A DNA stretch of 64,000 nucleotides, taken from the sequence record NC_054908.1. The stretch is one strand, 5' to 3'. The notes beneath the pieces are model-generated. The model saw only the letters and a list, made by a program, of their open reading frames with translations. It was not told the origin of the DNA and ran no database searches. Origin of the DNA: Escherichia phage vB_EcoM_DalCa. Within the stretch, counting starts at the first letter, position 1; the number at the start of each line of letters is the position of its first letter. Both the position numbers and the translations under genes were made by a program. This document shows positions 39,525 to 57,246 of this stretch, piece by piece.

Positions 39525-40354
<830 letters not shown>

Positions 40355-40364
40355 ATTATTTTCC

Positions 40365-40607
40365 TTAAACAGACTTTTTCACAATTTTCCAATCAGCTTT
40401 AAACTGCTCGACGTCAGAATGGTAAATCCAGAATCCTGCGCTTTCACCGTCTTCATAAAGCGGACACCCATCACATTCATCTTCCCATCCCATGCCACGT
40501 AAAAGGTGTTCAGCTTTTTCAACAAGTTCAGAATCTTTACCGATGATATTAAAATACCATTTACCTCTAACTTCTGAATCTTTGATGCTCTGGCGTTGTA
40601 ATCTCAT
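40365..40607 (-). CDS. hypothetical protein (frd.2 position)
   Basis: 80-aa ORF. Confidence 0.6.
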   Translation of the reverse strand: MRLQRQSIKDSEVRGKWYFNIIGKDSELVEKAEHLLRGMGWEDECDGCPLYEDGESAGFWIYHSDVEQFKADWKIVKKSV

Positions 40608-40745
40608 TTTATTCTCCTTAGCAAGCTTTAATCAAAAGATATAAACAGACCAACATAACTGCTGCCATAATATAAGGTGCGAACATTTTCTTTTCTCCAT
40701 TAGTTTTGATAGGGTAATAGTATCACACTACTACCCTTCTGTAAA

Positions 40746-41111
40746 CTACTTTTTGAAAGTTTTTCGCAAAAGTTCAATGATTTCATCTACATTGTTTTCG
40801 TCAACAATGCAGTGAATTTTTGTTACGCCAGAAACTTTGTCTTTGACTTCATCTTCTTCAGAAGTCGGTTCTTTATACTCACGAAAACAATGAAATTCGT
40901 CTTCACAAACGTTAAAGTAAAAATGCTTTCCATTTGCGCATTCAATGTGTTTTATTACTCTAAATCCATCAACAAAGAAAGCTTCTTTAACTTCAAACCA
41001 TCCGCCATTTTCTTGAATAATTTTAACTATTGCTGAATTAGAACGTGGGCGATAATTAATAAATGTATCAATAAGTCTTGGAACAAGTTCATACTTTTTA
41101 CCGATATACAT
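40746..41111 (-). CDS. hypothetical protein (frd.3 position)
   Basis: 121-aa ORF preceded by an early-type promoter at about 40705..40750. Confidence 0.6.
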   Translation of the reverse strand: MYIGKKYELVPRLIDTFINYRPRSNSAIVKIIQENGGWFEVKEAFFVDGFRVIKHIECANGKHFYFNVCEDEFHCFREYKEPTSEEDEVKDKVSGVTKIHCIVDENNVDEIIELLRKTFKK

Positions 41112-41155
41112 TATGTTTTCCTCATTTTAACGGGGCTGTAATAGCCCCTTGATAA

Positions 41156-41383
41156 TTATTGTTCAATCAATCCCATGTAAAATTCTGCGTCTTCAGAATC
41201 CATACCATCACAATATTCATTAGCCATAAAGCGGGTGAGGTCTTCAAGAGGACCTTCAATAACGATTTGAATACTCCAAAACTTAGAATCTTGCACGCTT
41301 GTGATACTAAGTTCAGGATAACGATTACGAATAATTTCTTCGATATATTCAAAATCAACGATGTCAATATCAACTTTAGCCAT
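41156..41383 (-). CDS. hypothetical acidic protein
   Basis: 75 aa from the internal Met with GAGGAAA Shine-Dalgarno; the longer track ORF runs into the promoter. Confidence 0.6.
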
Positions 41384-41421
41384 ATTATTTTCCTCTTTAA
41401 TCATCAGCAGTATTGCCGATA

Positions 41422-41482
41422 GTTGTATAGTACCATGGAAGGACAAGGATGTAAACCGTTTTGTGAAAAAATTTTTGAAATA
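41422..41482 (-). promoter_or_regulatory. T4 early-type promoter (UP element, GTTTACA -35, -10 TACTATAC) for 41156..41383
   Basis: member of a near-identical ~65-bp repeat family (also 58270..58330 and 61914..61972). Confidence 0.65.
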
Positions 41483-41486
41483 AAAA

Positions 41487-41505
41487 GGGGACCTCTAGGG
41501 TCCCC
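41487..41505 (-). terminator. hairpin (GGGGACC-TCTAG-GGTCCCC) downstream of gene 32
   Basis: 7-bp GC stem directly after the gene 32 stop. Confidence 0.55.
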
Positions 41506-41527
41506 AATTAATTAGTAATATAATCTA

Positions 41528-42436
41528 TTAAAGGTCATTCAAAAGGTCATCTAGGTCCGTGTCATCAGCACTAGATGAACTGCCAGAGCTTGAGCTCATA
41601 AAATCATCTTCAGTTTTTGTATTGAAGTCATCAACATTGAATGCATCCAAATCATCAGCAACTTTATCAGCTTTCTTAGCAGCAGTTGCAGCAGCACCGC
41701 CCATCACAGCAGTTCCCATAACTTGACCGAATTTAGTGCTCAGTTCTTCAAACGATTTGAATTTATCTTTAGAAGTCATTTCAGAAAGGTCAACCATTTG
41801 TTCGAACAGTTCTTTCTGGAAAGATTCATCGTCAATGTTTGGAATCGCAGATTGATTCAGGAATTTAGATTCGTCGTAGTTACTAAATCCAGAAACCTGT
41901 TTAACTTTCAGTACAAAGTTAGCACCTTCCCACGGACAAGTTACATCAACCGGAGTTTCACCCATTTCAACATCAACTGCAATCATTGCGTTGATTTTAT
42001 CCCAGATTTTCTTACCGAAACGGTATTTAAATACTTTACCTTCATTTTCTGGAGCAGCTGGGTCTTTTACTACAAGAATGTTAGCCCAGTAAGAAGTTTT
42101 ACGTTTAACAAGACCGTACTCTTTATTGTCAGTGTTATACAAATCATTTTTACTGATGTACTGACATACTGGACAAGAATCGTAATCACCGTGGGTAGAT
42201 GAACAGTTTTCAATATACCATTTACCATTTTTCTTGAAACCGTGATTTACAAGAATTGCGAATGGTGCTTGTTCATCATTTTTAGACGGAAGAAAACGAA
42301 TTACTGCTTGACCGTTACCCGCATTGTCGAGTTTCAGTTTCCACTCGCCTTTATCTTCAGAAGAAAAACCACCTTTATTTCCAGCCAGTTTAGCCATTTG
42401 TGCAGCGAGTTCAGCAGTAGATTTACGTTTAAACAT
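41528..42436 (-). CDS. 32: gp32 single-stranded DNA-binding protein
   Basis: 302-aa ORF recognised as T4 gp32, including acidic Ser/Asp-rich C-terminus. Confidence 0.95.
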
Positions 42437-42535
42437 TTTTATTTCCTTTTTAATTTAATTAACAGTTGGTGCTATGACGATGTATGACCTCATAGCTGGT
42501 CAGTGAGGTAATTATAATCTATTTATAATAAGCAA

Positions 42536-43189
42536 TTAATACCTACAAGATTTCACAGTTTCAATGAAAACACTTTTAGCTTTCTGTGAATCAATATTTA
42601 AAATTTTTCTATAAGCCTTTAACTTTATAGAATAATTATTCCAGACTAAATTATCAGTCTGTTCATCATGTTTATCAATTATATTTAAAAACGAATCAAG
42701 CAAGATAAACGTTTCAAACGAAATTATATTCGATTGAAGTAGTTTAAAAATATAACTTGATTGAACTTTTGGATTATACTCAAAGATTTCTTTAAAAGCA
42801 GAAACTTCAACTTTTTTACTAAAATAATAAATGTTGCGAATATCTTCTTCAAACTTAAATTTAATTTGCTTTAAGCGTCCGATATATTCACGATAAAACA
42901 CAAGTGCATCAGCGTCAGAGATGTCACCAATCCAAGCATCTTGGTTAGCTACAAGATTGCTAATAAAAATTAAAGTTAATTCTTTTAATTTATACTTTTC
43001 TGATAGCTTTTGGAAAAAATACTTATCCCTTCGCTTTTGATAAGCGGCATCAGACACCCGCATGCACCAATTATACTTAATTACATCATACTTTCCATTC
43101 ATATGTTGTTTTATCATTAAGTATAATTTATAAACTGATTTACCATCAATGTATCTTTCACCACCAGCAGGCATGCGGAGTTTAATCAT
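42536..43189 (-). CDS. 59: gp59 helicase loader
   Basis: 217-aa ORF recognised as T4 gp59. Confidence 0.92.
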   Translation of the reverse strand: MIKLRMPAGGERYIDGKSVYKLYLMIKQHMNGKYDVIKYNWCMRVSDAAYQKRRDKYFFQKLSEKYKLKELTLIFISNLVANQDAWIGDISDADALVFYREYIGRLKQIKFKFEEDIRNIYYFSKKVEVSAFKEIFEYNPKVQSSYIFKLLQSNIISFETFILLDSFLNIIDKHDEQTDNLVWNNYSIKLKAYRKILNIDSQKAKSVFIETVKSCRY

Positions 43190-43524
43190 AGTAGAAAATC
43201 TAATGTATTAGTTTTTTCACAACGAACAACAGAAGGACGTAAAAGATTTTCGTCAATGGCTTCTGACTGAATTTTTTCAATTATACCCGAAGGAATAAAT
43301 TTAGCAAATTGAGTTTCAGGAATAGAGTTTTCTTCCAAGAATGCTGTCGTAGCTTCAAGATAACTCATTCCAAACTCTTCTACCATTTTTTCAATGATAA
43401 ATCCATTTTCTTGACGATCGAGAAGCTTTGCTATTTCATCCTTTTCTTTCTTAATTGAAAGTTCTTTTTCTGAAAGTCCGGTCTCATCGACCGGACGAAT
43501 ATCATTTAGAGAAAACTGTGTCAT
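43186..43524 (-). CDS. 33: gp33 late-transcription co-activator
   Basis: 112 aa from the internal Met; T4 gp33 length and position. Confidence 0.85.
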   Translation of the reverse strand: MTQFSLNDIRPVDETGLSEKELSIKKEKDEIAKLLDRQENGFIIEKMVEEFGMSYLEATTAFLEENSIPETQFAKFIPSGIIEKIQSEAIDENLLRPSVVRCEKTNTLDFLL

Positions 43525-43771
43525 AAAGTTCAACTACCTCTTCAGTTTCAGCTTCAAACACATCACGATTATCTTTATGATACAAAGCTAATAGACGATT
43601 AAACATCTTACCATCAACGCCAAGTTCATCTTTGGCACGAATTCGAATATCTTTAATCAGTTCATTATAACCGGAAATTTTCAGTTTATGATCAGATGCT
43701 TCTTTAATAAATTTAGCCAAGTCTTCGCCATGGATAGCTTCATCAAATTCAACCATTTCTTTTTTAGCCAT
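43502..43771 (-). CDS. dsbA: DsbA double-stranded DNA-binding protein
   Basis: 89-aa ORF overlapping gene 33 start as in T4. Confidence 0.85.
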   Translation of the reverse strand: MAKKEMVEFDEAIHGEDLAKFIKEASDHKLKISGYNELIKDIRIRAKDELGVDGKMFNRLLALYHKDNRDVFEAETEEVVELYDTVFSK

Positions 43772-43779
43772 TATTCACC

Positions 43780-44697
43780 TCAAAATTCATTAATGCTATT
43801 AGTTAATTTAGAAAGACCCGCTTTTACAAAATATGAATAAATTTTGCCACGCGGTGGTAATTTATATGAATTATAGTAATTCACAATGTTTGAAGCAATA
43901 TTATCAGGAATATAATCAAAATCAATTAGAACTAAATTTTCTTTATAACGATTATATTCAGATTCTGTGAGAAGCACCTTAGCTTGTTCACGGTCATTAG
44001 CAATAGCTTCAACGATTGAAGTTTTCATTGAAGGAGTTCGTTCACCTTCAACTTTGGTAAACCAAAAGTCAGATCGTACTTTAACTGAAGCAACGTTATC
44101 CTTTTTGTCACCTTTAAGGATTTTAGTCATACAGTCAATTTCAGCAGAACCGCTTTTAATTTTAACCCATTTCTTATGCATCGGTGACCATTGCTTAACA
44201 TTTGGGTATTTGTGAAGCTGTGTAAAGTCACCATCCGACGAAATGATTAAAATCTTATGTCCTTCTAAAGAGAACTTTTTAACAAGAACAGCAATATGGT
44301 CATCTGCTTCATACTTATCAATATCCATAACAATGTATGGCATATAAGCTTTCAATTCATCTATAACTTTATGACTGGATTCAAAATAACCTTCCCAGTC
44401 CCAAGTAGATTCTTCTCGTGCTTTTCCACGGTTTTTCTTATAATAATAAGCGAAATCACGACGCCAGTATCCAGATTTCGCGTTATCAATACACAGTACA
44501 ATTTTAGTGTATCCAAGCGTTTTTGCTTTTTTGACATTAAACTTAATTGAGTTCAATATCAAATGACGAACCATTGATAAATTAATTTTTTCTTTATCTG
44601 GGAAGTTTACCAGAGCAGTTGAAAGAGCAATTTGACTAAAGTCAATAAAGCAAATTCCTTCTTTGTAATCTTCATCCAGCATCATTTCTAAATCCAT
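43780..44697 (-). CDS. rnh: RNase H (5'-3' exonuclease / flap endonuclease)
   Basis: 305 aa from the Met at 44697; recognised as T4 RNase H. Confidence 0.92.
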   Translation of the reverse strand: MDLEMMLDEDYKEGICFIDFSQIALSTALVNFPDKEKINLSMVRHLILNSIKFNVKKAKTLGYTKIVLCIDNAKSGYWRRDFAYYYKKNRGKAREESTWDWEGYFESSHKVIDELKAYMPYIVMDIDKYEADDHIAVLVKKFSLEGHKILIISSDGDFTQLHKYPNVKQWSPMHKKWVKIKSGSAEIDCMTKILKGDKKDNVASVKVRSDFWFTKVEGERTPSMKTSIVEAIANDREQAKVLLTESEYNRYKENLVLIDFDYIPDNIASNIVNYYNSYKLPPRGKIYSYFVKAGLSKLTNSINEF

Positions 44698-44759
44698 ATG
44701 AACCTCGTTCAATTAGTGAGATTTCTATTATATACTATCTAAATCTTAAAGTAAACAGG

Positions 44760-44767
44760 TATAAATA
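44760..44767 (+). promoter_or_regulatory. T4-type late promoter TATAAATA upstream of gene 34
   Basis: exact TATAAATA about 35 nt upstream of the gene 34 ATG, followed by AGGAG Shine-Dalgarno. Confidence 0.7.
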
Positions 44768-44801
44768 CTTATTATTGAAAACACAATAGGAGCCCGGGAG
44801 A

Positions 44802-47800
44802 ATGGCCGAGATTAAAAGAAAGTTCAGAGCAGAAGATGGTCTGGACGCAGGTGGCGATAAAATAATCAACGTAGCTTTAGCTGATCGTACCGTAGGAACT
44901 GACGGTGTTAACGTTGATTACTTAATTCAAGAAAACACAGTTCAGCAATATGATCCAACTCGTGGATATTTAAAAGATTTTGTAATCATTTATAATAATC
45001 GTTTTTGGGCAGCAACGGATAATATTCCAAAACCTGCTGGAAATTTTAATAGAATTCGTTGGAAAGCATTACGTACTGATGCTGTATATACAACCGTATC
45101 ATCTGGACCGTATCAATTAAAATCCGGAGAAGCAATTTCAGTAGATACATCAGTTGGTAATGACATTGAGTTTACTTTACCACCTTCTCCGCTCGATGGA
45201 GAAACAGTAATAATTCAAGATATCGGTGGAAAACCTGGTATAAATCAGGTTAAAATAAGTTCTTCAAATCAGAGCATTGTTAATTTTAGAGGTGAACAAG
45301 TACGTTCAGTTTTAATGACTCATCCAAAGTCACAGATGGTATTCATTTTTAATAATCGTTTGTGGCAAATGTATATTGCTGATTATAGCAGAGAAGCTGC
45401 GATTGTTACTCCATCGACTGCGTATCAAGCACAATCTAATGATTTTATCGTACGTAGATTTACTTCTGCTGCACCAATTAATGTTAAACTTCCGAGATTT
45501 GCTAATCATGGCGATATTATTAATTTCGTTGATTTAGATAAACTGAATCCACTTTATCATACAATTGTTACTACATACGATGAAACGACTTCAGTACAAG
45601 AAGTTGGAACTCATTCCATTGAAGGCCGTACATCGATTGACGGTTTCTTGATGTTTGACGATAATGAGAAATTGTGGAGATTGTTTGACGGGGATAGTAA
45701 AGCACGTTTACGCATTATAACAACTAATTCAAATATTCGTCCAAATGAAGAAGTCATGGTATTTGGCGCGAATAATGGAACAACCCAAACAATTGAACTT
45801 CAGCTTCCGACTGATATTTCTGTTGGTGATACTGTTAAAATTTCCATGAATTACATGAGAAAAGGACAAACAGTTAAAATCAAAGCTGCTGGTGAAGATA
45901 AAATTGCTTCTTCAGTTCAATTGCTGCAATTCCCAAAACGTTCAGAATATCCGCCTGAAGCTGAATGGGTAACAGTTCAAGAATTAGTTTTTAACGGTGA
46001 AACTAATTATGTTCCAGTTTTACAACTTGCTTATATAGAAGATTCTGATGGAAAATACTGGGTTGTACAGCAAAACGTTCCAACAGTTGAAAGAGTCGAT
46101 TCTTTAAATAATTCTACTAGAGCAAGATTAGGCGTAATTGCTTTAGCTACACAAGCTCAAGCAAATGCTGATTTAGAAAATTCTCCGCAAAAAGAATTGG
46201 CAATTACTCCAGAAACGTTAGCTAATCGTACTGCTACTGAAACTCGCAGAGGTATTGCAAGAATAGCAACTACTGCTCAAGTGAATCAGAACACCACATT
46301 CTCTTTTGCAGATGACCTTATCATCACTCCTAAAAAGCTGAATGAAAGAACTGCTACAGAAACTCGCAGAGGTGTCGCTGAAATTGCTACGCAGCAGGAA
46401 ACTAATACAGGTACTGATGATACTACAATCATTACTCCTAAAAAGCTTCAAGCTCGCCAAGGTTCTGAATCATTATCTGGTATTGTAACTTTTGTATCTA
46501 CCGCAGGAGCTACTCCAGCTTCTAGTCGTGAATTAAATGGTACGAATGTTTATAATAAAAACACTAATAATTTAGTTGTTTCACCTAAAGCTTTGGATCA
46601 GTATAAAGCTACTCCAACGCAACAAGGCGCAGTAATTTTAGCAGTTGAAAGTGAAGTAATTGCTGGACAAAGCCAAGAAGGATGGGCAAATGCGGTTGTA
46701 ACGCCAGAAACGTTACATAAAAAGACATCAACTGACGCAAGAATTGGTTTAATTGAAATTGCTACACAAAGTGAAGTTAATACAGGAACTGATTATACTC
46801 GCGCAGTCACTCCTAAAACTTTAAATGACCGTAGAGCAACTGAAAGTTTAAGTGGTATAGCTGAAATTGCTACGCAAGTTGAATTCGACGCAGGCGTCGA
46901 CGATACTCGTATCTCTACACCATTAAAAATTAAAACCAGATTTAATAGTACTGATCGTACTTCTGTTGTTGCTCTATCTGGATTAGTTGAATCAGGAACT
47001 CTCTGGGACCATTATACCCTTAATATTCTTGAAGCAAATGAGACACAGCGTGGTACACTTCGTGTAGCTACACAAGTTGAAGCTGCTGCAGGAACATTAG
47101 ATAATGTTTTAATAACTCCTAAAAAGCTTTTAGGTACTAAATCTACTGAAGCACAGGAAGGTGTCATTAAAGTTGCAACTCAGTCTGAAACTGTGGCTGG
47201 AACGTCAGCAAATACTGCTGTATCTCCAAAAAATTTAAAATGGATTGTGCAGAGTGAACCTACTTGGGCAGCGACTACTGCGATAAGAGGTTTTGTTAAA
47301 ACTTCGTCTGGTTCAATTACATTCGTTGGTAATGATACAGCTGGTTCAACACAGCCATTAGAATCATATGAGAAAAATGGTTATGCAGTATCACCATATG
47401 AATTAAATCGCGTATTAGCAAATTATTTGCCATTAAAAGCAAAAGCCGTAGATAGTAATTTATTAGATGGTCTAGATTCGCTCCAGTTCATTCGTAGGGA
47501 CATTGCACAAACAGTTAATGGTTCACTAACCTTAACCCAACAAACGAATCTGGGTGCCCCTCTTGTATCATCTAGTACTGCTACATTCGGTGGATCAGTT
47601 TCAGCAAATAGTACATTAACTATTTCTAATACTGGAACGGCAACTCGTCTGATTTTTGAGAAAGGACCTCAAACTGGAACAAACCCGGCTCAAACGATGA
47701 CAGTCAGAGTGTGGGGAAATCAATTTAGTGGGGAATCAGACACAACACGTTCTACCGTATTTGAAGTTAGTGATGAAACGTCTAGTCATTTTTATTCTCA

Positions 47801-48671
47801 GCGTAATAAAGCTGGAAATATAACATTTAATATCAACGGTACAGTAACACCGATAAATGTTAATGCTTCAGGAACATTGAATGCAAATGGTGTAGCAACA
47901 TTTGGTAATTCAGTCACTGCAACTGGTGAAATTATTTCTCGAAGCGCAAATGCTTTCCGTGCTATTAACGGAAATTATGGTTTCATTGTTCGCAATGATG
48001 GATCAGTAACGAATTTTATGCTTACTGCATCGGGTGATCAGACTGGTGGATTTAATGGATTACGTCCTTTAGCTATTAATAATGCATCTGGCCAAGTAAC
48101 GATTGGTGAAAGCTTAATCATTGCCAAAGGTGCTACTATAAATTCAGGCGGTTTGACTGTTAACTCGAGAATTCGTTCTCAGGGCACTAAAACATCTGAT
48201 TTATACACCCGCGCTCCAACATCTGATACTGTAGGATTCTGGTCAATTGATATTAACGATTCAGCCACTTATAACCAGTTCCCGGGTTATTTTAAAATGG
48301 TTGAAAAAACTAATGAAGTGACTGGACTTCCATACTTAGAACGTGGTGAAGAAGTTAAATCTCCTGGTACATTGACTCAGTTTGGTAACACACTTGATTC
48401 ACTTTACCAAGATTGGATTACTTATCCAACGACCCCAGAAGCACGTACCACTCGCTGGACACGTACATGGCAGAAAACCAAAAACTCTTGGTCAAGTTTT
48501 GTTCAGGTATTTGACGGAGGTAACCCTCCTCAACCTTCAGATATAGGAGCGATCCCATCTGATAATGGAATAATAGGTAATCTTACTATTCGCGATTTCT
48601 TGCGAATTGGTAATGTTCGCATTATTCCTGACCCAGTGAATAAAACTGTTAAATTTGAGTGGATTGAATAA
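44802..48671 (+). CDS. 34: long tail fibre proximal subunit gp34
   Basis: 1289-aa ORF, T4 gp34 length and position. Confidence 0.95.
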   Translation: MAEIKRKFRAEDGLDAGGDKIINVALADRTVGTDGVNVDYLIQENTVQQYDPTRGYLKDFVIIYNNRFWAATDNIPKPAGNFNRIRWKALRTDAVYTTVSSGPYQLKSGEAISVDTSVGNDIEFTLPPSPLDGETVIIQDIGGKPGINQVKISSSNQSIVNFRGEQVRSVLMTHPKSQMVFIFNNRLWQMYIADYSREAAIVTPSTAYQAQSNDFIVRRFTSAAPINVKLPRFANHGDIINFVDLDKLNPLYHTIVTTYDETTSVQEVGTHSIEGRTSIDGFLMFDDNEKLWRLFDGDSKARLRIITTNSNIRPNEEVMVFGANNGTTQTIELQLPTDISVGDTVKISMNYMRKGQTVKIKAAGEDKIASSVQLLQFPKRSEYPPEAEWVTVQELVFNGETNYVPVLQLAYIEDSDGKYWVVQQNVPTVERVDSLNNSTRARLGVIALATQAQANADLENSPQKELAITPETLANRTATETRRGIARIATTAQVNQNTTFSFADDLIITPKKLNERTATETRRGVAEIATQQETNTGTDDTTIITPKKLQARQGSESLSGIVTFVSTAGATPASSRELNGTNVYNKNTNNLVVSPKALDQYKATPTQQGAVILAVESEVIAGQSQEGWANAVVTPETLHKKTSTDARIGLIEIATQSEVNTGTDYTRAVTPKTLNDRRATESLSGIAEIATQVEFDAGVDDTRISTPLKIKTRFNSTDRTSVVALSGLVESGTLWDHYTLNILEANETQRGTLRVATQVEAAAGTLDNVLITPKKLLGTKSTEAQEGVIKVATQSETVAGTSANTAVSPKNLKWIVQSEPTWAATTAIRGFVKTSSGSITFVGNDTAGSTQPLESYEKNGYAVSPYELNRVLANYLPLKAKAVDSNLLDGLDSLQFIRRDIAQTVNGSLTLTQQTNLGAPLVSSSTATFGGSVSANSTLTISNTGTATRLIFEKGPQTGTNPAQTMTVRVWGNQFSGESDTTRSTVFEVSDETSSHFYSQRNKAGNITFNINGTVTPINVNASGTLNANGVATFGNSVTATGEIISRSANAFRAINGNYGFIVRNDGSVTNFMLTASGDQTGGFNGLRPLAINNASGQVTIGESLIIAKGATINSGGLTVNSRIRSQGTKTSDLYTRAPTSDTVGFWSIDINDSATYNQFPGYFKMVEKTNEVTGLPYLERGEEVKSPGTLTQFGNTLDSLYQDWITYPTTPEARTTRWTRTWQKTKNSWSSFVQVFDGGNPPQPSDIGAIPSDNGIIGNLTIRDFLRIGNVRIIPDPVNKTVKFEWIE

Positions 48672-48679
48672 GAGGTATT

Positions 48680-49795
48680 ATGGAAAAATTTATGGCAGAG
48701 TTTGGACAAGGATATGTCCAAACACCATTTTTATCGGAAAGCAATTCAGTAAGATATAAAATAAGCATAGCGGGTTCTTGCCCGCTTTCTACTGCGGGGC
48801 CATATGTTAAATTTCAGGATAATCCCGTTGGAAATCAAACATTTAGTGCAGGTCTTCATTTAAGAGTTTTTGACCCTTCTACGGGAGCATTAGTTGATAG
48901 CAAGTCATATGCTTTTTCTGCTTCAAACAATACAACATCTGCCGCTTTTGTCAGTTTCATGAATTCTTTGTCAAACAATAGACTTGTTGCTATATTAACT
49001 AGCGGAAAGGTTAATTTTCCTCCTGAAGTGGTATCTTGGTTAAGGGGAGCAGGAACTTCAGTTTTTCCATCAGATTCAGTATTGTCAAGATTTGACGTAT
49101 CATATGCTGCTTTTTATACTTCTTCTAAAAGAGCTATTGCATTAGAGCATGTTAAACTAAGTAATAGAAAAAGCACAGATGATTATCAAACTATTTTAGA
49201 TGTTGTATTTGATAGTTTAGAAGACGTCGGAGCGACAGGATTTCCAAAAAGAACTTATGAAAGTGTAGAGCAATTCATGTCAGCAGTTGGTGGAACTAAT
49301 AACGAAATTGCGCGATTGCCAACTTCAGCTGCTATAAGTAAACTTTCTGACTATAATTTAATTCCTGGTGATGTTCTTTATCTTAAAGCACAGTTATATG
49401 CTGATGCTGATTTACTTGATCTTGGAACTACAAACATATCCATTCGTTTTTATGATGCATCAAATGGATATATTTCCTCGACCCAAGCTGAGTTTACTGG
49501 GCAAGCTGGGTCTTGGGAATTAAAAGAAGACTATGTAGTTGTTCCAGAAAACGCCGTAGGATTTACGATATATGCACAAAGAACTGCTCAAGCAGGTCAA
49601 GGCGGCATGAGAAATTTAAGTTTTTCTGAAGTATCAAGAAATGGCGGCATTTCAAAACCTGCCGAATTTGGCGTCAACGGTATTCGCGTTAATTATGTCT
49701 GTGAATCGGCTTCACCTCCAGATATAATGGTACTTCCTACACAAGCCTCTTCTAAAACTGGCAAAGTGTTTGGACAGGAATTTAGAGAAGTTTAA
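48680..49795 (+). CDS. 35: long tail fibre hinge protein gp35
   Basis: 371-aa ORF, T4 gp35 length and position. Confidence 0.9.
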   Translation: MEKFMAEFGQGYVQTPFLSESNSVRYKISIAGSCPLSTAGPYVKFQDNPVGNQTFSAGLHLRVFDPSTGALVDSKSYAFSASNNTTSAAFVSFMNSLSNNRLVAILTSGKVNFPPEVVSWLRGAGTSVFPSDSVLSRFDVSYAAFYTSSKRAIALEHVKLSNRKSTDDYQTILDVVFDSLEDVGATGFPKRTYESVEQFMSAVGGTNNEIARLPTSAAISKLSDYNLIPGDVLYLKAQLYADADLLDLGTTNISIRFYDASNGYISSTQAEFTGQAGSWELKEDYVVVPENAVGFTIYAQRTAQAGQGGMRNLSFSEVSRNGGISKPAEFGVNGIRVNYVCESASPPDIMVLPTQASSKTGKVFGQEFREV

Positions 49796-49797
49796 AC

Positions 49798-49826
49798 TGA
49801 GGGAGCCTTCGGGTTCCCTTTTTCTT
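49798..49826 (+). terminator. hairpin (GGGAGCC-TTCG-GGTTCCC) plus T-run after gene 35
   Basis: GC stem with UUCG loop followed by TTTTTC. Confidence 0.6.
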
Positions 49827-49834
49827 TATAAATA
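49827..49834 (+). promoter_or_regulatory. T4-type late promoter TATAAATA upstream of gene 36
   Basis: exact TATAAATA about 24 nt upstream of the gene 36 ATG. Confidence 0.7.
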
Positions 49835-49857
49835 ATATTAAAATAAAGGGGCATATA

Positions 49858-50508
49858 ATGGCTGATTTAAAAGTAGGTTCAACTGTGGGTGGATCTGTCA
49901 TTTGGCATCAAGGAAATTTTCCATTGAATTCAGCCGGTGACGATGTACTCTACAAATCATTTAAAATATATTCAGAATATAATAAACCGCAGGCAGCTGA
50001 TAACGATTTCGTTTCTAAAGCTAATGGTGGTACTTACGCCGGTCCAATTACTATTAATTACGGGGTAAATAGTTATCTTCAATTAAGTAATAATGAAACC
50101 CCTATCCGAATTCGTTCTGGTGGCGGCACTGGTAATACTCTTGTAGTTGGCGGCTCTTCCGGTGGTATTAGTTTTAGACCTGCAGGTAGTGAAATCACTA
50201 CTGGACAAATTACTATTACGCCAGAAGGTTTGACAACATTTACCAGGGCTGTAACGGCTCCATCGGTAACTGTTACATCTACTCCTTCCGCAGCATCTGA
50301 TGTTACTCGCAAAGATTATGTTGATGGAGCAATAAATACTGTTACAGCAAATGCAAACTCTAGGGTATTACGCTCTGGAGACACTATGACAGGAAATTTA
50401 ACTGCGCCAAACCTTTTTTCACAGAATCCTGCATCTCAACCTTCACACGTTCCACGATTTGACCAAATCGTAATTAAGGATTCTGTTCAAGATTTCGGCT
50501 ATTATTAA
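49858..50508 (+). CDS. 36: long tail fibre distal connector gp36
   Basis: 216-aa ORF, position between 35 and 37. Confidence 0.9.
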
Positions 50509-50516
50509 GAGGACTT

Positions 50517-53483
50517 ATGGCTACTTTAAAACAAATACAATTTAAAAGAAGTAAAACTGCAGGTCAACGTCCTGCTGCTTCAGTATTAGCCGAAGGTGAA
50601 TTGGCTATAAACTTAAAAGATAAAACAATTTTCACAAAAGATGACTCAGGTAGTGTTATAGAATTAGGTTTAAAATATGGAGGAACAATTGATGGTTCTT
50701 TAACTGTTAATGGAAACATAATTGGAAATTTAACAGGTAACGCTGCAACTGCAACGAAATTAAAAACAGCACGAAAAATTAATGGTATATCCTTTGATGG
50801 GTCAAAAGATATCACGCTAACTCCATCTGACATAAATGTCAATAGCACAACGTTTATAAAAAATAACGGCGAATTACCTGTTGATGCTAATTTAGATGAG
50901 TATGGGCCTGTTGAAGAATATCTTGGAGTTTGGTCGAAAGCAACTTCAACCAACGCTCAACCAGCAAATAAATTTCCAGAAGAAAATGCTGTAGGTGTTC
51001 TAGAAGTATTTGTGGCCGGTCAATTTGCTGGTACTCAGAGATATACAACTAGATACGGAAATGTTTATATTCGTTCCTTGACTGCTACATGGAACGGAGT
51101 AAACGGTCCGTGGAGTGCGTGGCGAAATATTCAATCTGGTACTCGTCCACTGTCAACAACGATTGATCTTAATGATCTAGGAGGCGCTGAACACCTTGGT
51201 TTGTGGCGAAATAGTTCAAATTCCATTGCTACCTTTGACAGAAATTTCCCAGAAGAAGGATCGTCCGCTCAAGGACTTTTAGAAGTATATGAAGGTGGAA
51301 ACTATTCTCGCACACAGAGATATACGACCAGATTTGGTGTTGTTTATACTCGTTGTCTTGCTGCTGCGTGGGATGCTTCTGCGCCTAAATGGGGACCTTG
51401 GCAACAAGTCGGTAATGTCACACCGGCGACTTTCTATGACGGAGATCTGAATGATTTTAAAACTCCTGGGTTATATAATATTTTAGGCACTGATGCCGTT
51501 ATTAACTGTCCTACCGGTGAAGGTTTACCAGCCGTTATTGTTGGTTTGCTGGAAGTTAAACAGCGTGCTTCTGGTGGTGCTATTTTCCAAAAATTTACTA
51601 CTGCCGGAACGGGTGCAACTACTCGCGATCGTATTTTTGAGCGTGCATATACTGGTGGTGTGTGGGGTGCATGGAACGAAGTATATACATCTTATTCCCT
51701 GCCAATTACTTTGGGTATGGGTGGTATTAAAACTCAATTAGCGGAGTTAGATTGGCAAACCTTTGATTTTGTCCCTGGTAGTATGTTTAGTGTTCCTTTG
51801 AACAAAATAAAGAATATGCCAGCAAATATGGATTGGGGCACGATTGATGGAAACCTGGTTATGTTTTCCGTTGGTCCTAGCGAACACACTAGCACAGGAC
51901 GTACTGTTCAGATTTGGCGCGGCACCGTATCCCAGACAAACTACCGTTATTTTGTCGTTCGTGTGTTCGGTAATTCTGGAAATAGAACTTGCACAGTTCG
52001 TCGTGTTGTTCTTGAAGACGGATCACATACTTGGACTGCTAAACAAGATTTTAATGGCGCAGTTAACTTTAACTCTACTGTTAACCTTAATAACACTACC
52101 ACATTTAAAACAGAAGTTAAATTTCGCTCATTGAATGCATTCCGTATGTATGGCGGAAAATTTGGTACATTTTTACGTAATGATGGAGAGAGTCTTTATA
52201 TTCTTTCCACCGACGAAGATGATCAAGATGGAAACTTTAATACAAATAGACCTTTCCGTTATGAATTAAGAACTGGTGATGTTACTTTGGGTGGTGCTAG
52301 TGGTGCTAACGTTTTAAAATTAAAACGTGATTCTCTCACCGCATTTTTTGGCGGTGATATTAACATTAAAGGCATGATGACTTTTGACGCCGGACGTTTA
52401 GGATCACGAGATTATTTTAAATTTAACCATTGGGGTGATAGTAATAATGCGCGTGATAACATTATTCAGTTAGAAGACAGCAAAGGCGCTCATTTTTCCA
52501 CTGAACGTACTTTAGCGACTGGTGCAATTAAGACTAAATTTTTTGGTGAAATTGAATCCGATGGTAAATTGGTTATTAAACGTCCGGGTGATTCTATTGT
52601 ATTATCAACAACTGCTAGTAATTCTTTGCATATTCGCGGTGATATAGACGGGACTGGTAACTGGTATATTGGTAAAGGTGGTGCTGATAATGGATTAGCG
52701 TTCTATAGTTATGCTACTAATGCTGGTGTATACATTACAAACGCAGGAGATATCTCGCTAAGTCCAAAGGGTGCCGAAATGGCTCAGGTCAATAACGTTC
52801 GATTATATGTTCATGGTGAACGTTGGACCGCTAGTCAACCAGGTGATTGGGGCAGTCAGTGGCAAGTGGAAGCGCCAATATTCGTCGATCATGGTTATGT
52901 TGGACCAGATAGCTATTATCCAATTATTAAAGGAAGAAGTGTAATCACCAATCAAGGGTTTGTAACTGCCGTCGATCTTGGTATTCGTCGTGTCCCTAAC
53001 AATTGGGGGCAAGCAATTATTCGTGTTGGATCTGCAGAGGCATCGCCAGCGGCTGGACACCCTAACGCGGTATTTGAATTTCATTACGACGGTACTTTCT
53101 ATTCTCCTGGTAATGGTAACTTTAACGATGTGTATATTCGTTCCGATGGTCGTCTTAAGATTAATAAAAAAGAGCTAGAAAACGGAGCACTTGAAAAAGT
53201 ATGCCGACTGAAAGTTTATACATACGATAAGGTTAAGTCTATTAAAGATCGTAGTGTTATTAAACGTGAAGTTGGTATTATTGCTCAGGATCTTGAAAAA
53301 GAATTACCGGAAGCTGTGTCTAAAGTTGAAGTTGATGGATCTGATGTTCTGACAATTTCTAACTCCGCTGTGAATGCTCTTTTAATTAAGGCTATCCAAG
53401 AAATGAGCGAAGAAATTAAAGAATTAAAAACGCCTTTCTTCACTAAAATTGCTCGCAAAATTAGTAAATATTTTAAATTCTAA
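50517..53483 (+). CDS. 37: long tail fibre distal subunit gp37 with C-terminal intramolecular-chaperone-like domain
   Basis: 988-aa ORF; C-terminal ~115 aa contains IRSDGRLK (SDxRxK-like) and amphipathic [17 protein letters not shown] segment. Confidence 0.9.
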
Positions 53484-53518
53484 CAACAAGGGGGCAACGC
53501 CCCCTTTGGAGATAAATT

Positions 53519-54319
53519 ATGGCAGTAGTTGGTGTTCCTGGTTGGATTGGTAGTTCATCCGTAAATGAAACAGGACAACGATGGATGAGTCAAGCGGCTG
53601 GTCAATTAAGATTGGGTGTTCCTTGCTGGATGAGTCAATTTGCAGGTCGCTCACGAGAAATTATTCATACACTTGGAGCAGACCATAACTTCAATGGTCA
53701 ATGGTTCCGAGATAGATGTTTTGAGGCCGGTAGTGCACCTATAGTGTTTAATATTACAGGTGATTTAGTATCATATTCTAAAGATGTTCCTTTATTCTTC
53801 ATGTACGGGGATACGCCTAATGAATATGTTGTTCTTAATATTCATGGTGGTGTTCATATGTGGGGTCGTGGTGGTAATGGTGGATACACTCACTCGGGAG
53901 GCGACGGTAACGGTACACAAGGCGGTCATGTTATTCAAAATGATATCGGTGGACGGCTTCGTATTTGGAACTACGGTGTTATAGCTGCTGGCGGTGGCGG
54001 CGGTGGTGGTATTGCATATCGTCCACACTCAGGGGCAAACTGGCAAGATATCGGTGGCGGTGGTGGTCGACCTTTCGGTGGCGCTGGCGGTGGCGGTTAT
54101 TCCGGTGGTGCTGCTTCGTATGAAGGTCCGGGTGGTGGTTATGACTATGGTAACGCACACTCCGGCGCAGGTGGTAATGCTGGTGCTGCTGGTCAGAATG
54201 CATGGTCTGACGGCGGTAAAGTTCTTAAAGTTGGTGTTGGTGGTGCGTCTGGTCATGCAGTGTTTGGGTCTTCTCCAACTTGGGGTGCTGTTGGAACAAT
54301 TTACGGACCAAGAGTATAA
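53519..54319 (+). CDS. 38: gp38 tail-fibre tip adhesin, T2 type (glycine-rich motifs interleaved with variable segments)
   Basis: 266-aa ORF; N-terminal gp37-attachment-like region, then repeated poly-Gly blocks separated by short variable stretches. Confidence 0.88.
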
Positions 54320-54349: not shown

Positions 54350-55006
54350 ATGGCAGCACCTAGAATATCATTTTCGCCCTCTGATATTCTGTTTGGTGTT
54401 CTAGATCGCTTGTTCAAAGATAACGCTACCGGGAAGGTTCTTGCTTCCCGAGTAGCTGTCGTAATTCTTTTATTTATGATGGCGATTGTTTGGTATAGGG
54501 GAGATAGTTTCTTTGAGTACTATAAGCAATCAAAGTATGAAACATACAGTGAAATTATTGAAAAGGAAAGAAATGCACGCTTTGAATCTGTCGCCCTGGA
54601 ACAACTCCAGATAGTTCATATATCATCTGAGGCAGACTTTAGTGCGGTGTATTCTTTCCGCCCTAAAAACTTAAACTATTTTGTTGATATTATAGCATAT
54701 GAAGGAAAATTACCTTCAACAATAAGTGAAAAATCACTTGGAGGATATCCTGTTGATAAAACTATGGATGAATATACAGTTCATTTAAATGGACGTCATT
54801 ATTATTCCGACTCAAAATTTGCTTTTTTACCAACTAAAAAGCCTACTCCCGAAATAAACTACATGTACAGTTGTCCATATTTTAATTTGGATAATATCTA
54901 TGCTGGAACAATAACCATGTACTGGTATAGAAATGATCATATAAGTAATGACCGCCTTGAATCAATATGTGCTCAGGCGGCCAGAATATTAGGAAGGGCT
55001 AAATAA
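54350..55006 (+). CDS. t: holin T
   Basis: 218-aa ORF recognised as T4 holin; single TMD near N-terminus. Confidence 0.93.
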   Translation: MAAPRISFSPSDILFGVLDRLFKDNATGKVLASRVAVVILLFMMAIVWYRGDSFFEYYKQSKYETYSEIIEKERNARFESVALEQLQIVHISSEADFSAVYSFRPKNLNYFVDIIAYEGKLPSTISEKSLGGYPVDKTMDEYTVHLNGRHYYSDSKFAFLPTKKPTPEINYMYSCPYFNLDNIYAGTITMYWYRNDHISNDRLESICAQAARILGRAK

Positions 55007-55802: not shown

Positions 55803-56021
55803 TTATGCTTTGCGACTAAATTGTTCATAGTGCTGAATTACCTCTCTTAAACATTTGCATGTGAATGAAAACTTTTTAGCTACACCACATTCAAATATAT
55901 GTTCTCTTAAATCACGTGTATCAGTATATCCCATCTCAACAATAAAATGCCTTATTAGATTTTTATCTTTATCATTGAGAGAATTAAAATAATCAGATTT
56001 TGAATTAATTTCCCTGGCCAA
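55803..56021 (-). CDS. hypothetical protein (arn-motA accessory block)
   Basis: 72-aa ORF. Confidence 0.55.
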   Translation of the reverse strand: MAREINSKSDYFNSLNDKDKNLIRHFIVEMGYTDTRDLREHIFECGVAKKFSFTCKCLREVIQHYEQFSRKA

Positions 56022-56301
56022 ATTGAATCACCTTCAGTTGACGTTTTAGCTCTTTTATCATCTCTTCGTTCATCGCAATATAAAGATCGCGTAAAGCAGG
56101 TTTTATCATTCCATTTATTGGGGAACTAAATGGGCATACATAATCTTTTCCTACGAGCTTTTTAGTGAATTCCATATCACAAAACTGAAATGCAGGTTCA
56201 TTAGCATAAATTCCCCAATTGGTTGACATCATTTTATTGGCATATTCCAATGCTTGGATTTGATTAGTAATTCCATCAATTTGAAACTTTTTAATATTCA
56301 T
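56005..56301 (-). CDS. hypothetical protein (arn-motA accessory block)
   Basis: 98-aa ORF. Confidence 0.6.
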   Translation of the reverse strand: MNIKKFQIDGITNQIQALEYANKMMSTNWGIYANEPAFQFCDMEFTKKLVGKDYVCPFSSPINGMIKPALRDLYIAMNEEMIKELKRQLKVIQFGQGN

Positions 56302-56768
56302 TAGTAAAGGTCCTCGGAGTAAAGTTCTTTTTCACTACCACCACGTTCAATACGCACTTGTCCAGCGTAAGTTGCAATAATCATTGCTTCTTCACGTGTC
56401 CAGTAATTGCTATACTGGTCAATAAATCCTTGGTCTTCACCACAAACATGGTCTGATACAAGTTTATCACTTACCTGGTCAAGAACTTCAGCCATATCTT
56501 TAGAATAATGACGAGCACCAGGAATAACCAGAGTCCCACCATCTTTTAACTTAAAGCGGTTGGCTGCACACACAATTCGACGTTGATATTTTTCATTATT
56601 GTTCCAATGAGCTACTTGCCAACAGATTTCAGGAACCTCTTCTAAAACATCCTCTTCCGTATATTCGGTGTAGTCGCCATAGGCCTGTAATTTAGCTGCT
56701 AGACTTTCTGGAGTTTCACGTAATAAAGCCAGGTCTAATAATTCAAGACGCTCTTTGAAGGTTTTCAT
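56301..56768 (-). CDS. hypothetical protein (arn-motA accessory block)
   Basis: 155-aa ORF. Confidence 0.65.
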
Positions 56769-56916
56769 TTGGTTTCCTCAACACTTTTAATTTTTATAGC
56801 TTGTTTAGAACTTTCAAAGCATTGACAATATACTCTTACCGCATCAAACTGGTTGGCCGCTTTAAGATGGACTACACCTTCGTCGTTATAAAATTCTACG
56901 ACAATTTTAAATGTTT

Positions 56917-57246
56917 TCATTTAAACCATCCTTTAATACGTTGCCATAAAGTTTTCTGTTGAGCTTTGTTAACACCAATTGAACGAATAACTGGTTGAGA
57001 TTCCTGAAATTCTTTATAATCAGCAAGGTAAATTTCGTAAGCTGCATCCGTAAATGAACTTATCGCTGCCATAAAATTATTGCGAATACCTACTGGAGCA
57101 TCTTTACTTTCACGAATAATCATGTATTTACCAGTCTTAATCTTTACGATAGTTCCAAGATAAGCTCCATGGTACCAGATGTCCCAACCCTCTTGAGTAG
57201 GTTCTACACAACGACGAAGTTCATTGACAATTTCTAACTTGTTCAT
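56917..57246 (-). CDS. hypothetical protein (arn-motA accessory block)
   Basis: 109-aa ORF. Confidence 0.6.
   Translation of the reverse strand: MNKLEIVNELRRCVEPTQEGWDIWYHGAYLGTIVKIKTGKYMIIRESKDAPVGIRNNFMAAISSFTDAAYEIYLADYKEFQESQPVIRSIGVNKAQQKTLWQRIKGWFK

Follow-up and report, generated by a model that had tools for sequence, protein, structure and literature searches.

Several tail-fiber tips related to the one analyzed here, which is encoded by genes 37 and 38 of Escherichia phage vB_EcoM_DalCa (Tequatrovirus ecomdalca; sequence record NC_054908.1), have already been described. In phage S16, whose fiber is listed among those bearing an intramolecular chaperone (IMC) domain (PMC7289586), autocleavage removes the last 113 residues of gp37, and this exposes the surface on which gp38 docks (PMC7917993); the same paper, aligning the Yersinia fPS phages with the S16 site that it reports, predicts cleavage at DVYIR^SDGRLKI, identical to the sequence found here. 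Trp residues act as prongs docking gp38 on gp37 (PMC7917993), and S16 gp38 is present as a monomer on the fiber tip of the virion (PMC12032242). For T2 and T6, PMC3157838, citing Drexler 1986, states that gp37 is cleaved C-terminally and then capped by gp38. The cleavage chemistry is described for T5 pb1, where Lys1269 activates Ser1264 and a correctly formed trimer is needed for cleavage (PMC4690869). In the field, gp38 is described by a scheme of five glycine-rich motifs (GRMs) and four hypervariable segments (HVSs) (PMC3157838; PMC12032242), and exchange of such modules has been reported by Trojet et al. 2011 (PMC3157838). As for receptors, Ox2 binds the loops of OmpA, and FL08 and AV119 were shown to be OmpA-dependent (PMC12032242).

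The window, namely the whole stretch of 64,000 nucleotides (nt) that was analyzed, carries a long-tail-fiber operon in a T-even (Tequatrovirus) segment. We consider it highly probable that the end of gene 37 together with gene 38 forms the module at the distal tip of a long tail fiber of the T2/T6/Ox2 type, in which gp37 carries a self-cleaving IMC and gp38 is an OmpA-binding adhesin, acting by the mechanism proposed below. An initial annotation, made from the sequence alone, had singled out the interval 53130-54319, which runs from codon 872 of gp37 (its first base) through the stop codon of gp38, and the two open reading frames (ORFs) are as described there, flanked by gp36 and holin t. The elements that carry the argument are the following:

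50517-53483, plus strand: gene 37, long tail fiber distal subunit precursor (988 residues, 108.2 kDa; PHROG 1699 'long tail fiber protein distal subunit', E 9e-227)
53127-53141, plus strand: DVYIR, gp37 residues 871-875, the last residues of predicted mature gp37 and the predicted gp38 docking surface; aligns to DLNVS^S of S16
53142-53159, plus strand: SDGRLK motif with Ser876 and Lys881
53142-53480, plus strand: IMC (Peptidase_S74) domain, gp37 residues 876-988 (113 residues, 12.8 kDa)
53519-54319, plus strand: gene 38, receptor-recognizing adhesin (266 residues; Pfam GP38 and Gp38_N)

Both proteins are exact full-length matches of RefSeq entries of this phage, gp37 of YP_010067662 ('long tail fiber protein distal subunit') and gp38 of YP_010067663 ('tail fiber protein; host specificity'). 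Literature searches for this phage yielded no relevant paper. The fiber-tip module is nevertheless of a known kind: its proteins are in RefSeq, structures of the family have been solved, a published prediction of the cleavage site exists and the literature states that gp37 of T2 and T6 is processed; the family features have been published (PMC7917993, PMC3157838, PMC7289586). The practical value of this locus is that of a clean example for annotation, with a predicted cleavage at R875|S876, a predicted mature gp37 of 875 residues (95.3 kDa) and a predicted OmpA receptor. The module determines which bacteria the phage can adsorb to and is thus relevant for host-range prediction and for the engineering of therapeutic phages.

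gp37 ends in a Peptidase_S74 IMC domain. The Pfam profile (PF13884, 'chaperone of endosialidase') matches residues 876-934 with an E-value of 1e-11 and 45.4 bits (cut-off 22), covering profile positions 1-57 of 58 with position 1 on Ser876, and the domain extends to the last gp37 residue. The motif IRSDGRLK occupies residues 874-881 (nt 53136-53159), with 113 residues from Ser876 to the end and 115 from I874, and this count confirms the tail of about 115 residues that the initial annotation had described. Ser876, with Lys881 five residues downstream, presents the catalytic S-D-x-R-x-K arrangement and is the counterpart of Ser1264/Lys1269 in T5 pb1 (PMC4690869). When the gp37 C-termini of the window, Ox2, ESCO58, T6, FL08, FL18, T2 and S16 were aligned, the S, D, R and K of the motif were invariant in all eight, and conservation is 90% or higher at N870-D871-V872-Y873-I874-R875-S876-D877, L880 and K881 across 38 database homologues. 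Searching the PDB with a profile of gp37 C-termini retrieved S16 gp37 (6F45_A, E 6e-63), the MyRF ICA (7DC3, E 1.5e-9), a putative tail fiber (8JOV) and the neck-appendage chaperone 3GUD, whose chain, as crystallized, starts at the homologous Ser (SDERHK). Together with the Pfam match and the invariance of the motif, the MyRF and 3GUD matches bear out the earlier reading of SDxRxK as an IMC-type site.

The fold of the domain was modeled with similar results. In the AlphaFold monomer of the last 238 gp37 residues, block means of pLDDT are 85-93 over most of the IMC, which ends in a long helix (fragment residues 199-235), and Foldseek matched the IMC model solely to solved IMC domains, with probability 1.00 to 7DC3 and 0.99 to 3GUD, and also to T5 pb1 with its IMC and to the endoNF IMC. 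The IMCs of the K1F endosialidase (3GW6), T5 pb1 (4UW8), the 3GUD neck appendage and the eukaryotic MyRF ICA (7DC3) share with gp37 the Peptidase_S74 assignment, the Ser at +1, the Lys at +6 and the long C-terminal helix, whereas sequence identity to them is only 9-22%, the gp37 IMC is shorter than the endoNF domain, and the cleavage predicted here would expose a docking face for a separate adhesin instead of a receptor-binding or enzymatic tip. The S16 gp37-gp38 pair (PDB 6F45) has the architecture that is proposed here, combining a 113-residue gp37 IMC cleaved before the Ser of SDxRxK with a monomeric gp38 that bears Trp prongs as well as a beta-helix and a polyglycine-II sandwich. Identity to S16 is 47% (MAFFT) or 41% (Foldseek alignment) for gp38 and 28% for the C-terminal 155 residues of gp37. 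S16 differs in the P1 residue and the context upstream of it (DLNVS|S in S16, DVYIR|S here) and in its receptor, Salmonella OmpC, with HVS sequences unrelated to those of this gp38.

For gp38, the GP38 profile (PF05268) matches residues 47-266 over its full length (positions 1-218 of 218; E 1e-67, 228.5 bits), and Gp38_N (PF21721) matches residues 1-42 (E 3e-19, 69.1 bits); the protein also matches PHROG 2056 (E 9e-110). At the sequence level, its PDB matches are the receptor-binding domain of PP01 gp38 (9V85, E 3e-65) and S16 gp38 (6F45_D, E 4e-43). The AlphaFold model, built from a 61-sequence alignment, has a pLDDT of 86.8, and Foldseek places it on the same two structures (9V85_C, E 1.5e-26, TMt 0.88; 6F45_D, E 1.1e-20, TMt 0.82; TM range 0.74-0.88), with no other PDB fold below an E-value of 1 and the next match above 2. 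The Gly-rich region is modeled with a pLDDT of 87-97 and almost no DSSP helix or strand, as would be expected for polyglycine-II helices. The N-terminal 45 residues are of low pLDDT in the free monomer, which fits an attachment domain that becomes ordered only on gp37. Sequence and model thus support a T2-type adhesin with a beta-helix and a polyglycine-II sandwich, and the T2/T6-type assignment proposed in the initial annotation is borne out by GP38, Gp38_N and the PP01 and S16 adhesin matches. The domains and segments of gp38 were delimited as follows, the HVS boundaries being approximate and, like the 19-residue motif, taken from alignments:

53519-53656, plus strand: N-terminal domain for attachment, T6/Ox2 subtype, residues 1-46, with conserved W9, W22 and W37
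53657-53857, plus strand: conserved beta-helix region, residues 47-113, likely crossover zone
53858-54256, plus strand: specificity domain (glycine-rich motifs and HVS1-4), residues 114-246
53885-53920, plus strand: HVS1, about residues 123-134
53927-53983, plus strand: conserved 19-residue motif, residues 137-155
54011-54052, plus strand: HVS2, about residues 165-178
54080-54169, plus strand: HVS3, about residues 188-217
54194-54238, plus strand: HVS4, about residues 226-240

Glycine makes up 26% of gp38 and 38% of residues 110-250, an enrichment far above chance. The initial annotation had counted at least six poly-Gly blocks separated by short variable segments, and this stood only in part: six G-rich blocks are found by window count, but true poly-Gly runs of at least four residues number three (G7 at 158-164, G5 at 179-183 and G4 at 190-193), and the literature recognizes five GRMs. 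In the alignments, invariant Gly columns lie at 116-121, 158-162, 182-190, 205, 216-225 and 241-245, separated by variable stretches, and gp38 agrees with the scheme in the literature, in which five GRMs alternate with four HVSs. The three segments quoted as variable are all present (residues 137-155, 168-177 and 227-238), the last two in HVS2 and HVS4, but residues 137-155 are among the best conserved of the specificity domain. Across 61 diverse gp38 sequences, that motif shows no variation at I139, N141, G144, L147, I149, N151, G153 or I155 and hardly any at R148; the sole residues peculiar to the Ox2 group are W150 and Y152, standing in place of N and G (or N) in the otherwise conserved RLRI-N-G strand. 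The tryptophans W9, W22 and W37 are invariant in a 10-sequence alignment; in the 61 sequences W9 is invariant and W22 nearly so.

The closest characterized counterpart of the module is that of Ox2, for which genes 37 (3' end), 38 and t were deposited by the Henning laboratory in 1987 (GenBank X05675). Nucleotide identity to this record is 99.1% over 1401 nt with the same gene order, the IMC (residues 876-988) is 100% identical, and the two gp38 proteins are equally long and agree at 263 of 266 residues. Eight substitutions fall in the gp37 tip (residues 747-870), with 19 nt differences at 52755-53125. The window is, by sequence, a close relative or recombinant in the fiber-tip module, not Ox2 itself. 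A Tequatrovirus submitted as a phage of Pseudomonas coronafaciens ('Pseudomonas phage PsgM02F', OR584013) has an Ox2-type gp37/gp38 module 98.8% identical to the window, and across 49-58 kb its identity profile does not differ from that of E. coli phage ph0021; given an adhesin of the type directed at E. coli OmpA, its stated host looks doubtful.

In gp38, the three differences from Ox2 are N174 (K in Ox2, in HVS2), G193 (R, in HVS3) and A257 (V); HVS1-4 are otherwise identical. Identity in the specificity domain is 98-99% to Ox2 and ESCO58 and 83-84% to FL08 and AV119, whose 'type 1' gp38 (PMC12032242) has a nearly identical HVS4 and the same HVS2 pattern, IAYR(P/V)HSGANW(Q/K)D; to the adhesins of T6 (Tsx), T2 (OmpF/FadL), M1, FL18 and S16 (OmpC) it falls to 39-48%. 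Seven FL08 residues are predicted to contact OmpA (PMC12032242); here five of them are kept (R168, H170, S171, G172 and A173) and two are changed (V to P169 and D to N220). Against FL08 and AV119, this gp38 further differs in W150 and Y152, which are N and G there, and in their own numbering the two changed positions are V166 and D217. As the gp38 loops are essentially those of Ox2, the surface loops of E. coli OmpA are the predicted receptor; an alignment of gp38 against adhesins including those of Ox2, T2, T6 and S16 had been suggested as the way to a receptor prediction, and it places Ox2 closest. The receptor class follows, in this case, from near-identity to a phage that was characterized in the 1980s.

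The mechanism that we propose for the module combines these elements. gp37 would be synthesized as a precursor of 988 residues, of which the last 113 would act as an IMC that nucleates trimerization and folding of the C-terminal fiber tip. After correct folding of the trimer, Lys881 would activate Ser876, which is predicted to cut the R875-S876 bond, the chaperone trimer would depart, and a new C-terminal face of gp37 (…NDVYIR) would be bared. A single gp38 monomer may then dock on this face with its N-terminal attachment domain through the prongs W9, W22 and W37, giving a probable 3:1 arrangement of gp37 and gp38. The specificity domain, in which conserved Gly-rich motifs are expected to form a polyglycine-II sandwich, would present the four hypervariable receptor-binding loops, and these Ox2-like loops would bind the surface loops of OmpA. 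The cleavage mechanism is transferred from T5 pb1; the transfer is supported by PMC7917993 (S16 and the fPS phages), PMC3157838 (T2 and T6) and PMC7289586 (S16).

Different explanations for the two proteins should be considered. gp38 could be an assembly chaperone of the T4 type, absent from the virion, with receptor binding residing in gp37, and indeed some public records of homologues are named 'distal long tail fiber assembly catalyst', an annotation carried over from T4. This is effectively refuted already and retains practically no probability, as the full-length GP38 match (E 1e-67) is accompanied by Gp38_N, the sequence and fold matches of gp38 are solely to the solved PP01 and S16 adhesins, a gp37 with its own IMC has no need of a T4-type gp38, and gp38 is 99% identical to that of Ox2, for which alterations in the hypervariable region changed the host range (work cited in PMC12892980). 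All of the Pfam, PHROG and PDB matches of gp38 are to adhesin families or structures, whereas a T4-type chaperone is what the initial annotation had named as the alternative to be looked for. It is also conceivable that the C-terminal domain of gp37 folds as an IMC but is not cut, and is kept on the mature fiber as a structural cap. Several points weigh against our reading here: cleavage of this gp37 is deduced from characterized homologues; no obvious equivalent of the Arg in the upstream Arg/Asp 'folding sensor', which a neighboring chain contributes in T5 pb1 and K1F, is seen at the conserved spacing; and the mature tip before the IMC is poorly modeled as a monomer (pLDDT 39-62). At position -6, this gp37 has N where S16, FL08 and FL18 have R, and it shares with T2 the R875 at -1 and the conserved D871 at -5. 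T2 gp37, however, carries the same VYIR|SD.RLK site and is stated to be cleaved and capped by gp38 (PMC3157838, citing Drexler 1986), S16 gp37 is cut at the homologous bond with the cut exposing the docking face for gp38 (PMC7917993), Ser876 and Lys881 are intact and invariant across the family, and a retained IMC would fill the site that gp38 needs. We thus regard an uncleaved gp37 as very improbable.

Reading gp37 as a predicted self-cleaving precursor and gp38 as an adhesin still leaves the identity of the receptor to be weighed. With N174, G193 and A257, and with W150 and Y152, a functional gp38 could use a primary receptor other than OmpA, such as OmpC, an OmpX-like protein or lipopolysaccharide (LPS). 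A single HVS substitution can suffice to switch the receptor, as Q206L did from OmpF to OmpW (bioRxiv 10.64898/2026.04.02.716166), alterations in the hypervariable region of Ox2 gp38 itself gave changed receptor specificity (according to citations in PMC12892980), and two of the three differences from Ox2 fall in HVS2 and HVS3. In addition, one survey (PMC3157838) saw Ox2 behave as if a single receptor were not enough, and its receptor use may thus go beyond OmpA. On the other hand, N174 and G193 are the states found in the OmpA-requiring FL08 and AV119 as well as in ESCO58, A257 is the ESCO58 state (N in FL08 and AV119), G193R and A257V are natural polymorphisms within the same 90% cluster, and HVS1 to HVS4 are otherwise those of Ox2. 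A primary receptor other than OmpA is, accordingly, distinctly unlikely. A milder version, in which W150/Y152 together with N174/G193 shift the range of OmpA-loop variants that are recognized or add a secondary receptor (LPS or OmpC), is also rather unlikely; if true, near-identity to Ox2 would mask a real difference in host range.

The claim that this module is a likely recombination hotspot is confirmed by the identity profiles, as sliding nt comparisons with relatives are mosaic across the fiber module:

OMNI12: 98-100% in windows 48250-50499; 75-89% in windows starting at 50500-52000 (N-terminal half of gp37); mostly 98-99.6% from 52250, with a dip to 96-98% at 53000-53750
ASO78A: 98-100% upstream; 84-89% in windows starting at 52000-52750
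T6: 96% in windows starting at 52000 and 52250; 81-92% to 53999, with the HVS region unalignable; 99% in t
T2: gp37 and gp38 unalignable; 97-99.6% from about 54500
FL08: gp37 essentially unalignable; gp38 76-82%; 97-99.6% from about 54500

At the protein level, the two halves of gp38 are reassorted in a two-by-two manner. With T6 the attachment domain is 100% identical and the specificity domain only 48%; with FL08 the specificity domain is 83% identical and the attachment domain only 57%; and between FL08 and FL18 the respective values are 86% (attachment) and 46% (specificity). The attachment domain (residues 1-46) is also 100% identical to Ox2 and 50-63% to FL08, AV119, FL18, T2 and S16, while the beta-helix region (residues 47-113) is 91-96% identical to T6, M1, FL08, AV119 and FL18 despite the divergence of its flanks. 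Judging from these alignments, the 91-96% identity among E. coli types makes this stretch the likely crossover zone. Every attachment subtype accompanies its own gp37 end: in the window, gp38 lies directly 3' of gene 37 with a T6/Ox2-type N-terminus next to a T6/Ox2-type gp37 end, and in FL08 and FL18 a different gp38 N-terminus is paired with an S16-like gp37 end. An unusual arrangement of the same domains was seen outside the window, in an E. coli 'tail fiber domain-containing protein' of 303 residues, which joins Peptidase_S74 to Gp38_N and GP38 domains; it resembles the product of a read-through or frameshift linking a gp37 IMC to gp38, or an assembly artefact.

Further upstream in gp37, a domain of about 90 residues is duplicated in tandem at 50860-51410 (about residues 116-298), with the signature GxLEV…TQRYTTRxGxVYxR…W…W. 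The two copies align with a local Smith-Waterman score of 166, compared with 28±5.5 for shuffles, and a third copy at about residues 340-390 scores far lower (about 40); when gp37 was compared with itself by BLASTP, no internal matches were returned. The GC content of the duplicated region is 0.43-0.44, above that of its surroundings, and identity to OMNI12 falls to 75-80% there.

The operon has the order gp34-gp35-gp36-gp37-gp38-holin t (from the ORF list and Pfam), and it is followed downstream of holin t by AsiA and further early genes on the minus strand. The genes around the module and the elements of the 35-nt gap between genes 37 and 38 are:

44802-48671: gp34, 1289 residues
48680-49795: gp35, 371 residues
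49858-50508: gp36, 216 residues
53490-53504, plus strand: intergenic GC hairpin GGGGGC-AAC-GCCCCC, after the stop codon of gene 37 and before the ribosome-binding site of gene 38 (sequence inspection)
53508-53511, plus strand: Shine-Dalgarno GGAG of gene 38 (sequence inspection)
54350-55006, plus strand: holin t, 218 residues (Pfam Phage_holin_T, E 2e-117), the conserved right-hand flank of the variable module

The hairpin is no more stable than shuffled sequences (z -1.16), and we make no regulatory claim for it. The 1987 Ox2 record is one G short at this position, possibly a gel-compression error of the old sequence. As for transcription signals, an exact late promoter TATAAATA before gene 38 is absent from 49827 to the end of the window, the nearest upstream copy lying at 49827, and scans for sigma-70-like promoters and terminators gave counts no higher than in shuffles. 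Rfam and tRNA scans of the whole window gave no matches. Gene 38 also contains numerous short ORFs in either orientation, which were rejected as genes, being by-products of its GGN-rich, G-skewed composition (GC 0.50, skew 0.3).

Mosaicism is not restricted to the fiber genes. A second patch, at 56000-57000, covers small minus-strand ORFs between arn and motA; identity there is about 82% to ph0021, PsgM02F and T2 and 97-100% to OMNI12 and ESCO58, with flanks at 96-99% to all five. The 24-kb match of the window to ASO78A is split into three pieces; in the part corresponding to 40000-44800 of the window, ASO78A carries a gene for the homing endonuclease SegG between gene 32 and gene 59, where OMNI12 has none.

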